Positions 30,901 to 33,900 of a stretch of 64,000 nt of DNA are shown piece by piece (within the stretch, counting starts at the first letter, position 1; every line of letters starts with the position of its first letter). Location: assembly GCF_057098645.1 (NCBI RefSeq), contig NZ_CM169472.1; one strand, written 5' to 3'. The position numbers were made by a program.

Positions 30901-33900
30901 CAGTGCGGGTTGCAGATATTCAGGGATGGTGTTGTCAGACATTTTCCGGCTCCTCGTCACTTCAGGTTAAGAAAATTGTGACGTACACCGGACAACAACA
31001 CGACGCATTGCAGATGTGCCAGCCCTGACACAGGAGACTCATCCTCAGACCGGCAAGCCAGGAAAAGGTCGCAGGAAAAACCGGCTTACTGTTTGTTTTT
31101 TTATATTTTACTGTTCACCTCTGTTCACCATAAGAAAAAAGATAAGTAATACAGTAAGTTAAATGGTGAACAATCGCAGTAATGACTGTTCACCGTCTGT
31201 TCACCACTGTTCACCCGTTGATGGACTTTTTGTGCTGTTTACTACTGTTTATTTTTATTAATTCACTGAAATAAATAAGAAAAAACAATTTGTATTTCAC
31301 TATAATTTTTTCCAGCTCCTTCCAGAGCGTTTTAAAGCTATCTGGCGCTGATATACAAAAAATGCACAGCCATTGTAAGGCTGCCGGAACAAATCCCCCC
31401 TGTTGCGTCTGCCAAAAATATTCACAAAATAAAGCGCTACCCGAAGCCGGACGGACTTATCCGGTGCTGTATGGACATTAACGAGGTAGCCCGATGCAAG
31501 CTGTTTTTTCTTCCCCGTCTCCCGCCCCTGTGACGCCACTGATGCCGCTGCCGGACATCACGCAGGAGCGTTTTTTACGTCTGCCGGAAGTGATGCACCT
31601 GTGCGGCCTGTCACGCTCGACCATCTATGAACTCATCCGTAAGGGGGAATTTCCGCCGCAGGTGAGTCTTGGCGGTAAAAATGTGGCCTGGCTGCACTCT
31701 GAAGTCACCGCATGGATGGCCGGACGCATTGCCGGACGCAAACGGGGGTACGACGCATGATAGTGCCCGCTCTGCAAAAACTCCCTTTTTCTGGCTTGCC
31801 TTTTTCCGGCATTTGCGGATATAGTTTTTCCGCTGCCGCAAAATCGGCAGCCGGGCGTGAGAACCCGTGTAGCTCGAAGGCGACATATGACGCGCCATGC
31901 GTCTTTTTTTGTGTCGCAATCAACGCCACAGAGCGCCAGATTATGGTGTGGCGTGTGGTTTGCCGTGCAGGTATGATCCTGTTCGCAATCGCATGTTATG
32001 CCACTGAGTCAATGGTAGCTCAGGCGGGGCAGCCTCCGGGCTGGCCGGTATTCTTCGAGGCCGGTATTCTCACCCCCGTCTGGGCTATCGCCATCGAGCG
32101 TGAGAACTCCGGCGATAGCAGTTATTTGCTACTCGAAGGAGGCTGCCTTATGGCTACAACCCTTACCCCCTCACACCCTGAATTTGTCTTTGTGTTTGCG
32201 GCTGTCCGTCGCGCAGACCGTCATCCCCGTATCTGCATGCTTCGCACCGTCGCCGGTGATGAACGCAGCGCCCGCCGTTCCCTTGTCCGTGACTATGTGC
32301 TCTCCCTTGCTGCCCGTCTGCCGGTGGTGGAGGTGTCCCGTGCGTAATAAAAGCCCCTCAGACCGTCTCAGCGCGTCATGACGCCCGTGAACACCTCAGC
32401 ATTGAGGCTTACCATAAGCTCAACCGCGCCAGCGCCGTATCCCGGTTTGTTGGGGGTGATTTGATTCACCGTGAACTCTCCGGCCTGCATCAGCTCTACA
32501 TTCCGCATATTTTCAGTTACCTGAATGAAGATATTGATTTTGTGCTGAATGAACTGAAAGCCAAAGGCCTGTGCCGCGATTTTCTCGCCCAGCAGAAAGA
32601 CCGGGGAGACAGGACGCATGTTTGATTTTCCCCAGCCCGGTGAGATTTACCGTTCTGCCGGTTTTCCCGATGTGGCCGTGGTCGGCATTCTGGAAGACGG
32701 TATTCCGTGGGAAATGCCGTACCGCTGCCCGGACATTGTCTGGAACCCGTACCGCCGTAAATTCAGTATCCTTGTGCGTATCCTCGCTGACGGGCGCACC
32801 ACAGACATCCCGCTGGGGCGTTTTCTGCGGGAATTTACCTGTGACCGTCCTGACCTGTTTAAACGCAGCCCCGTAAACCGGCATGCGGTACTGAAAGAAA
32901 TGGCCGGAGACCCGGAATTACAGAAATGGCGGGAGAAATATCTGGATATTTACCCGCAGGACCCTGTTCCGGTCAGCCGGGCGGCACCGGTGGCGCGGGA
33001 ATGGCGGGAAATTCCCCGCACGGAGCCTGACCCGGAAATCACCCCGGATAACAGTTACCGCAATTATCTGTAATTAAAAAACGACACCCGAAAAATTAAA
33101 TGTGCGTATTCGCGCAGGGATACGCACGTCTTCAGGAGACGCAGATATGCCTTATCAGTTAATGCAACCGGCACGGAATGCAGTCATCTGTCACAGGGAG
33201 GAAAACAAATGAAAACACCCTTACCGCCCGTCTTACGCGCTGCCCTTTACCGTCGCGCTGTCGCCTGTGCCTGGCTGACCGTGTGCGAACGTCAGCACCG
33301 CTACCCGCATCTCACCCTTGAGTCACTGGAAGCGGCCATCGCCGCTGAGCTGGAAGGCTTTTATCTGCGCCAGCACGGTGAGGAAAAAGGGCGTCAGATA
33401 GCCTGTGCCCTGCTGGAAGATTTAATGGAATCCGGCCCCCTGAAGGCCGCGCCGTCGCTGTCCTTTCTCGGGCTGGTTGTGATGGATGAACTCTGTGCCC
33501 GTCACATAAAAGCGCCGGTACTGCACTGAAGGAGAACAACACCATGAAAATGAACGTAACCGCCACCGTCAGCCATGCGCTCGGCCACTGGCCGCGTATT
33601 CTCCCGGCGCTGGGGATTCAGGTGCTGAAAAACCGTCATCAGCCCTGTCCGGTCTGTGGCGGGAGTGACCGCTTCCGTTTTGATGACAGGGAGGGGCGCG
33701 GCACCTGGTACTGCAATCAGTGTGGTGCCGGTGACGGCCTGAAACTGGTTGAAAAGGTGTTTGGTGTCTCCCCGTCCGACGCGGCCGCAAAGGTGGCTGC
33801 CGTGACCGGCAGCCTGCCCCCGGCTGACCCGGCAGTGACGGCTGCCGCCGGTGCTGAAACAGACGCTGCCCGGAAGAACGCCGCCGCACTGGCACAAACC

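Follow-up and report, generated by a model that had tools for sequence, protein, structure and literature searches.

A 2-bp deletion parts epsilon from its start codon in a P4-type satellite prophage at selC

The locus described here lies in a stretch of 64,000 nucleotides of contig NZ_CM169472.1 (NCBI RefSeq assembly GCF_057098645.1) that was analyzed as a whole and is referred to below as the window. Aligned with satellite phage P4, positions 31400-33600 match over their full length at 96.9% identity. The wider match runs from 36223 to 26257 of the window (P4 coordinates 4291-11624) and is interrupted once, at P4 coordinates 10107-10119, which is the junction between sid and an insertion sequence. 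The tRNA-Sec gene at 23156-23250 is the site of the element, psu and delta are intact, and genes of the LEE lie to its right (from comparison with the gene table of another locus, L031). From its sequence, the region can be identified as belonging to a P4-type satellite prophage at selC, in which it makes up the immunity-proximal part of the left operon.

The order of genes, taken from the annotations of P4 and from that made by PGAP for the nearest E. coli relative, is vis/alpA, eta with kil nested inside it, epsilon, ORF151, cnr, and alpha, all on the forward strand. The vis/alpA-type gene (31494-31760), the first to be read from the late promoter PLL, is an ORF of 88 amino acids that can be aligned with P4 ORF88, whose annotation reads “excisionase and transcriptional regulator.” At the other end of the region, ORF151 (32618-33073; 151 aa) begins with an ATG that overlaps the epsilon stop codon and found no family match in Pfam and NCBIfam profile searches; intact cnr (ORF106; 33209-33529) and alpha primase-helicase (33544-35877) genes complete the series.

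The immunity features lie upstream of kil, also on the forward strand. A sigma-70 promoter-like site (31796-31825; TTGCCT-18-TATAGT) occupies the place of the P4 promoter PLE; it is recognized by consensus alone, and its assignment to PLE follows from position relative to P4. The seqA target region and leader terminator (31819-31909) score above the gathering scores of Rfam models of the c4-a1b1 and isrK-like type (RF03163, 50.4 bits; RF01394, 69.2 bits), and a terminator-like hairpin is found at 31889-31903. The CI immunity RNA (32008-32095) matches the Rfam C4 antisense RNA family over its full length (RF01695; 74.3 bits, E = 7.7e-14), and its loop, seqB (CTTCGAG), is complementary both to seqA and to seqC, a second CI RNA target at 32132-32143 that overlaps the kil ribosome-binding site (CTCGAAGGAGG). 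Complementary seqB and seqC co-vary and fall into three specificity types. The window differs from P4 in its immunity specificity: its seqA, seqB, and seqC are unlike those of P4 yet match one another.

The first of the two genes at issue, kil (32150-32347, forward strand), runs from ATG 32150, which a strong GGAGG site precedes by 7 nt within GAAGGAGG, to the TAA at 32345-32347. It encodes a 65-aa Icd-like cell-division inhibitor (NCBIfam NF033153; E = 1.6e-21, 76.1 bits against a cutoff of 25) and differs from P4 kil at two synonymous sites and nowhere else. As in P4, where a 65-aa kil is the 3' part of an eta of ~196 aa, it makes up the 3' end of a longer ORF whose start lies at the vis stop; again as in P4, a C4-family immunity RNA lies upstream and its loop pairs with a target, seqC, over the kil ribosome-binding site. 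This longer ORF, the 196-aa eta (31757-32347, forward strand), has an ATG that overlaps the vis stop (ATGA), matches Pfam Phage_ASH (E = 3.3e-21), and carries the NCBIfam Icd-like domain at its C-terminus; the same ORF is annotated by PGAP in the nearest relative (L015, positions 6797-7387). Between the CI RNA and kil, paired +1/-1 indels shift the reading frame of eta relative to P4 for nine codons. The nested arrangement of kil within eta is described in PMC10111431, citing Forti 1999, which also states that translation of eta prevents termination in P4.

The second gene is epsilon. The P4 protein (UniProt VEPS_BPP4; Pfam PF25738, “Derepression”) has 95 residues and reads VRNKKAPQTV... from a GTG that shares bases with the stop codon of kil/eta (GTGCGTAA), an overlap that is also present in 975 complete E. 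coli genomes, these being the genomes with the stretch among 5426 complete RefSeq E. coli genomes. The window holds epsilon at the same locus, between the same neighbors, kil/eta and ORF151, and overlapping both. Its ribosome-binding site and start codon (32329-32342, forward strand; GGAGGTG at 32329-32335, GTG at 32340-32342) are intact, and the GTG stands where the P4 and PGAP annotations place the start of epsilon. The body of the gene, 90 codons for residues 6-95 (32353-32625, forward strand), is intact as well, and its protein is identical to that of P4, with three synonymous differences in the DNA. Its stop codon overlaps the ATG of ORF151 within ATGTTTGA (32618-32625), as the earlier note on this DNA had observed. 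What parts the GTG from the body is a 2-bp deletion in the run of A's at codons 4-5 (32349-32352, forward strand), which has four A's (A4) against six in P4 (A6): in a base-level alignment, P4 AATAAAAAAGCC, read as AAT AAA AAA GCC, becomes AATAAAAGCC in the window. The residual 5' ORF (32340-32381, forward strand) encodes a 13-aa out-of-frame peptide that ends at the TGA at 32379-32381.

The body is part of an open frame of 111 codons (32293-32625) that follows a TGA at 32290-32292 and closes with the TGA at 32623-32625. An open run of this length has a probability of ~0.02 at the local base composition, and a chance open frame is excluded because the body matches positions 7-95 of the 95 in the PF25738 profile with E = 1.3e-48 (163.1 bits, cutoff 27) and has the same protein sequence as residues 6-95 of P4 epsilon. 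The earlier note described this frame as having neither ATG nor GTG; ATG is indeed absent, but there is an in-frame GTG at 32542, 27 codons from the end. Before codon 69, a TTG at 32461 is the one canonical start in this frame, and none was found upstream of epsilon codon 42 in the window sequence. All members of the epsilon family that were aligned have a contiguous ORF in a single frame, whereas in the window no single ORF of ~95-99 aa leads from a canonical start through epsilon. In the family alignment, residues 1-7 are variable and residues 19-41 form the most conserved block; no solved structure of an epsilon relative was found. The deletion falls in the variable N-terminal tail, such that in-frame initiation or a +1 slip nearby would give a complete protein.

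These findings bear directly on how the two overlapping frames are to be read. The earlier note had taken them to be a single P4 immunity-region gene, either frameshifted or with a programmed or unusual start. Its coordinates for the frames (ATG 32150 to 32347, and 32293-32625) hold, and a frameshift is present, but it lies inside the second gene, between GTG 32340 and the body (A6 to A4), and comparison with P4 and its relatives returned, in place of one continuous ORF, two separate, short, overlapping genes with their own starts. The frames do overlap by ~55 nt, as might be expected if one gene ran on from ATG 32150 and passed, through a frameshift near 32293-32347, into the second frame; however, kil/eta of P4 and of relatives annotated by PGAP closes at the same TAA, epsilon there has a GTG of its own, and the two frames match separate families, NF033153 for kil and PF25738 for epsilon. 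The single-gene reading is refuted by the condition that the earlier note itself had set, and it has next to no chance of being right. The suggestion of a programmed or unusual start finds no counterpart in the 975 genomes, in the contiguous ORF of the family, or in any stimulatory RNA structure. The genes and their arrangement are already known: these are two textbook P4 genes, together with an ordinary frameshift allele.

Indels in homopolymers are common sequencing errors, and some error-prone public assemblies have five A's (A5) at this site along with many other frameshifts, so the possibility that the 2-bp gap is itself a sequencing or assembly error has to be weighed. The nearest relative, NZ_CM195844, is 99.2% identical to the window, with 42 substitutions and a single indel, the 2-bp deletion, over 5263 bp; within the epsilon body the two differ at one site, which is synonymous. 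An error would therefore have produced the sole indel in 5.26 kb. It would also have had to recur, since at least 10 independent E. coli assemblies (draft or SRA-derived), from different projects and pipelines, share the identical A4 sequence; they were located by exact look-up of the alpha protein of the element and of the 92-aa product of the allele. A4 is therefore a real allele, and we give the error explanation practically no credence. It is a rare allele, inherited in a small group of strains. None of the 975 complete genomes with the stretch carries it: all have the 2-bp-longer form, and their best matches reach at most 98.0% identity and align 102 record bases with 100 query bases. In a contig collection with one genome per species, variants of A-run length at the site returned no matches, a result that is uninformative on frequency. 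We also considered whether the tract is phase-variable (a contingency locus) and rejected this, given that clean assemblies have only A6 (the 975 genomes) and A4; A5 and A7 were found in no clean assembly, and A5 occurs only beside many other frameshifts.

In P4, according to PMC2995052, the E protein acts as an anti-repressor, binding the C repressor of the helper P2 and so derepressing the helper. With two bases gone from the A6 run, ribosomes that start at GTG 32340 would be out of frame and would stop after 13 codons, at the TGA at 32379-32381; the 90-codon body would be left with no usable start, and little or no full-length E would be made. The satellite would then be unable on its own to awaken a resident P2-type prophage. 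We conclude that kil and epsilon are separate genes and that, with high probability, the window carries a recent null or strongly reduced allele of epsilon in a decaying satellite, with the loss of anti-repressor function inferred from the reading frames.

The immI operon of phage P1, in which c4 RNA is followed by icd and ant, is a useful point of comparison, as it follows the same logic, with the same order of a C4-family antisense RNA, an Icd-like inhibitor, and an anti-repressor. Epsilon is unrelated to Ant in sequence and targets the repressor of the helper, not that of its own element.

There are other ways in which an A4 gene might still deliver protein. One, which we consider quite unlikely, is that epsilon is still made in reduced amount, so that the allele is attenuated and not null. 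This could happen by a +1 slip of tRNA-Lys, which would leave AAA 32349-32351 and re-pair with AAA 32350-32352 on A-AAA-A to give a 94-aa protein beginning MRNK-APQTV..., or by initiation at the near-cognate AUA 32347, the start in NCBI-derived gene calls, to give 92 aa. Four A's do permit perfect +1 re-pairing, the residues lost fall in the non-conserved tail, the body has no nonsynonymous change, the allele is carried across two haplotypes and two sites, and public records name the 92-aa product “Derepression protein.” However, no complete genome of the 975 has the allele and the ORF of the family is contiguous, and the carriers are too alike for an intact body to prove selection. As a slip site, the run has AGC, neither a stop nor a rare codon, as its 0-frame A-site codon; the Shine-Dalgarno-like GGAGGTG lies 13 nt upstream, whereas sites of the prfB type have a spacing of ~3 nt; and no local RNA structure is predicted (z = -0.34). 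As for a start, initiation at AUA is very weak in E. coli, and AUA 32347 lies 11-13 nt from the ribosome-binding site and behind a well-placed GTG with which it would compete. Programmed recoding finds no support: the allele is absent from complete genomes, and no stimulator or predicted RNA structure accompanies it.

The treatment of the allele in public annotation should be kept apart from the question of its expression. Gene calls in carriers begin at ATA 32347, a non-canonical codon whose first base is the last base of the kil/eta TAA, and the resulting 92-aa “Derepression protein” is found on at least 21 contigs, against at least 1000 contigs for the 95-aa form with an identical body. We regard the ATA start as an annotation convenience and not as evidence of expression. 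That NCBI-derived gene calls treat the allele as an intact 92-aa gene is an observation on the side opposed to a null allele.

A further alternative, which we judge very unlikely, is a translational relay, in which overlapping stops and starts would keep ribosomes on the mRNA and spare ORF151, cnr, and alpha from Rho-dependent polarity, perhaps also yielding a functional C-terminal fragment. In its first step, the TGA of the 13-codon ORF overlaps ATG 32378 (ATGA, 32378-32381). The 28-codon ORF that begins at this ATG ends in a TGA overlapping TTG 32461 (TTGA, 32461-32464), which is preceded by GGGGGTGAT, and from there an internal ORF (32461-32625, forward strand) encodes the C-terminal 54 aa, epsilon residues 42-95, with its stop over the ORF151 ATG. 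All three overlaps are present in the sequence, and the P4 left operon relies on translation to escape Rho termination, as stated in PMC10111431. The same overlaps exist in wild-type P4, however, and therefore are not adaptations to the deletion. The 54-aa product covers only positions 43-95 of PF25738, and it is unlikely to work because it lacks the block that is most conserved in the family, residues 19-41. A look-up of this product found A4 in none of its matches, which arose from kil indels, from other epsilon indels, and from A5 in error-ridden assemblies.

The distribution of the strongly reduced or null allele across carriers indicates how it may have spread. Carriers of A4 have two flanking haplotypes and two integration sites, and all four combinations are present. 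Haplotype 1, which includes the window, has the 196-aa eta and ORF151; in haplotype 2, eta is 199 aa long and ORF151, with 9 bp inserted, reaches 154 aa. Carriers at the selC site have a 392-aa integrase and hydrolase cargo, like the window, and those at the second site, which adjoins an alcohol-dehydrogenase gene, combine methylase cargo with an integrase of 424 aa. Over the 8063 bp from yicI to the 3' end of sid, one selC carrier (L029) departs from the window at 1 base, yet its left operon diverges by 2.1%. From 32237 to 32962 the two A4 haplotypes have one and the same sequence, and each of the nearest A6 relatives differs at three SNPs there, which favors a single origin, with later recombination or gene conversion between P4-like copies resident together, over recurrent slippage.

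Otherwise, the carriers are identical from vis to alpha save at one site. The A4 allele is young, and an intact body is no proof of selection, given this near-identity; in addition, the sample of carriers for epsilon-body dN/dS is biased, as these were found by exact protein look-up. The persistence of the allele onto two flanking haplotypes and two integration sites counts against a null allele and is easier to understand if A4 is harmless or still partly functional. We nevertheless find it decidedly unlikely that A4 is a “quiet,” attenuated epsilon, expressed at a low level by a +1 slip or by AUA initiation coupled to kil/eta termination, that has been retained, and copied by recombination between co-resident heteroimmune P4-like elements, for avoiding lethal induction of a P2-type helper.

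The element in the window has a second lesion. The capsid-size gene sid is split by an IS21-family element (istA and istB; 27775-30405, reverse strand; matches to NF033546 and NF038214), which accounts for the break in the match to P4. The junction of sid with the insertion sequence was found in no complete genome by megablast, and the junction protein had no exact match; every other A4 carrier lacks such an insertion and retains sid intact at 244 aa. Because sid is also split, two lesions in genes for exploitation of the helper, epsilon and sid, fit an element in early decay. Loss of a core gene in this way has a parallel in the alpA pseudogenes of P4-like satellites, which are inactivated by frameshifts and inherited within clades (de Sousa and Rocha 2021, PMC8628076), although the gene concerned there is another one than epsilon. 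The same study records “Type B” P4-like variants without epsilon, and the A4 allele of epsilon is not described in it.

The finding carries little weight for biology at large. Its practical consequence is that gene calls with an ATA start hide a probable loss of function, and automatic counts of “complete” P4-like satellites would overrate the elements with A4. The element at selC beside the LEE has lost its anti-repressor, probably, and its sid, certainly, and is unlikely to be a competent satellite that can trigger itself. The same lesion on two heteroimmune backbones and at two sites offers a small, clear example of recombination between co-resident satellites.

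Epsilon, the anti-repressor of the helper phage P2, carries in this satellite the A4 allele, a 2-bp deletion that shortens a run of six adenines near the start of the gene to four. NCBI-derived gene calls present this allele on 21 contigs as an intact 92-aa "Derepression protein" beginning at an ATA codon at 32347 (for example, entries EFA4760998.1, EHW7703260.1, EIW6479502.1, and HHK8893203.1), a call that probably hides a pseudogene. Across epsilon (32378-32464 and 32461-32625), one stop codon after another overlaps a start codon, in a chain that takes in all three reading frames (ATGA, TTGA, and ATGTTTGA), and 5' of the TTG at 32461 lies GGGGGTGAT, a near-perfect complement of the anti-Shine-Dalgarno sequence. 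The chain, which is also found in wild-type P4, could possibly serve as an internal start or a coupling relay.

Compared with P4, eta (31757-32347) has a 9-bp in-frame deletion at 31973, and +1 and -1 indels at 32120 and 32147, 27 bp apart, between the CI RNA (the C4-family immunity RNA) and the kil ATG. The indel pair alters nine codons before the frame is regained, and this pattern fits selection on translation through the stretch rather than on its sequence there.

Where carriers of epsilon A4 are otherwise identical, nearly all differences (5-34 per locus) fall in the origin region (30961-31493). This region is repeat-rich and lies between sid and vis. ORF151 (32618-33073), for which Pfam, NCBIfam, and PADLOC gave no match, is a 154-aa version in hap2, the second of the two flanking haplotypes carrying the allele, owing to a 9-bp in-frame insertion (GCGGGAATG) at about 32994.

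An IS21-family element with multi-repeat ends (27775-30405, minus strand; istA, 28643-30289; istB, 27871-28869) interrupts the P4 sid gene in the window, leaving minus-strand sid remnants at 27564-27774 and 30406-30960. Because no complete E. coli genome has the same junction and all other epsilon A4 carriers are without the insertion, it is the newest lesion of this satellite.

The interval between integrase and psu, a known P4 defence hotspot, holds two cargo ORFs (24641-26147). One matches the PADLOC model "Hydrolase" (E = 6e-198) and the other "Hydrolase-TM" (E = 9e-141), so that the pair is a candidate for an anti-phage system of two genes. Farther right, 37731-41926 is 99.9% identical to a contig coding for type III secretion genes of the LEE island (EspA, an SseC/EspD-like protein, and a needle protein), and by this match the satellite lies between selC and LEE, as in EHEC/EPEC strains.

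The CI RNA loop (seqB, 32046-32064) co-varies perfectly with both of its targets, seqA (31866-31882) and seqC (32126-32143, over the kil ribosome-binding site), across three specificity types (the window versus the selC carrier L029, L017, and P4). The type is CTCGAAG in the window's haplotype, hap1, TCTAACGG in hap2, and TTCACAGG in P4. Since loop and targets differ in type between them, hap1 and hap2, which share the epsilon lesion, look heteroimmune.
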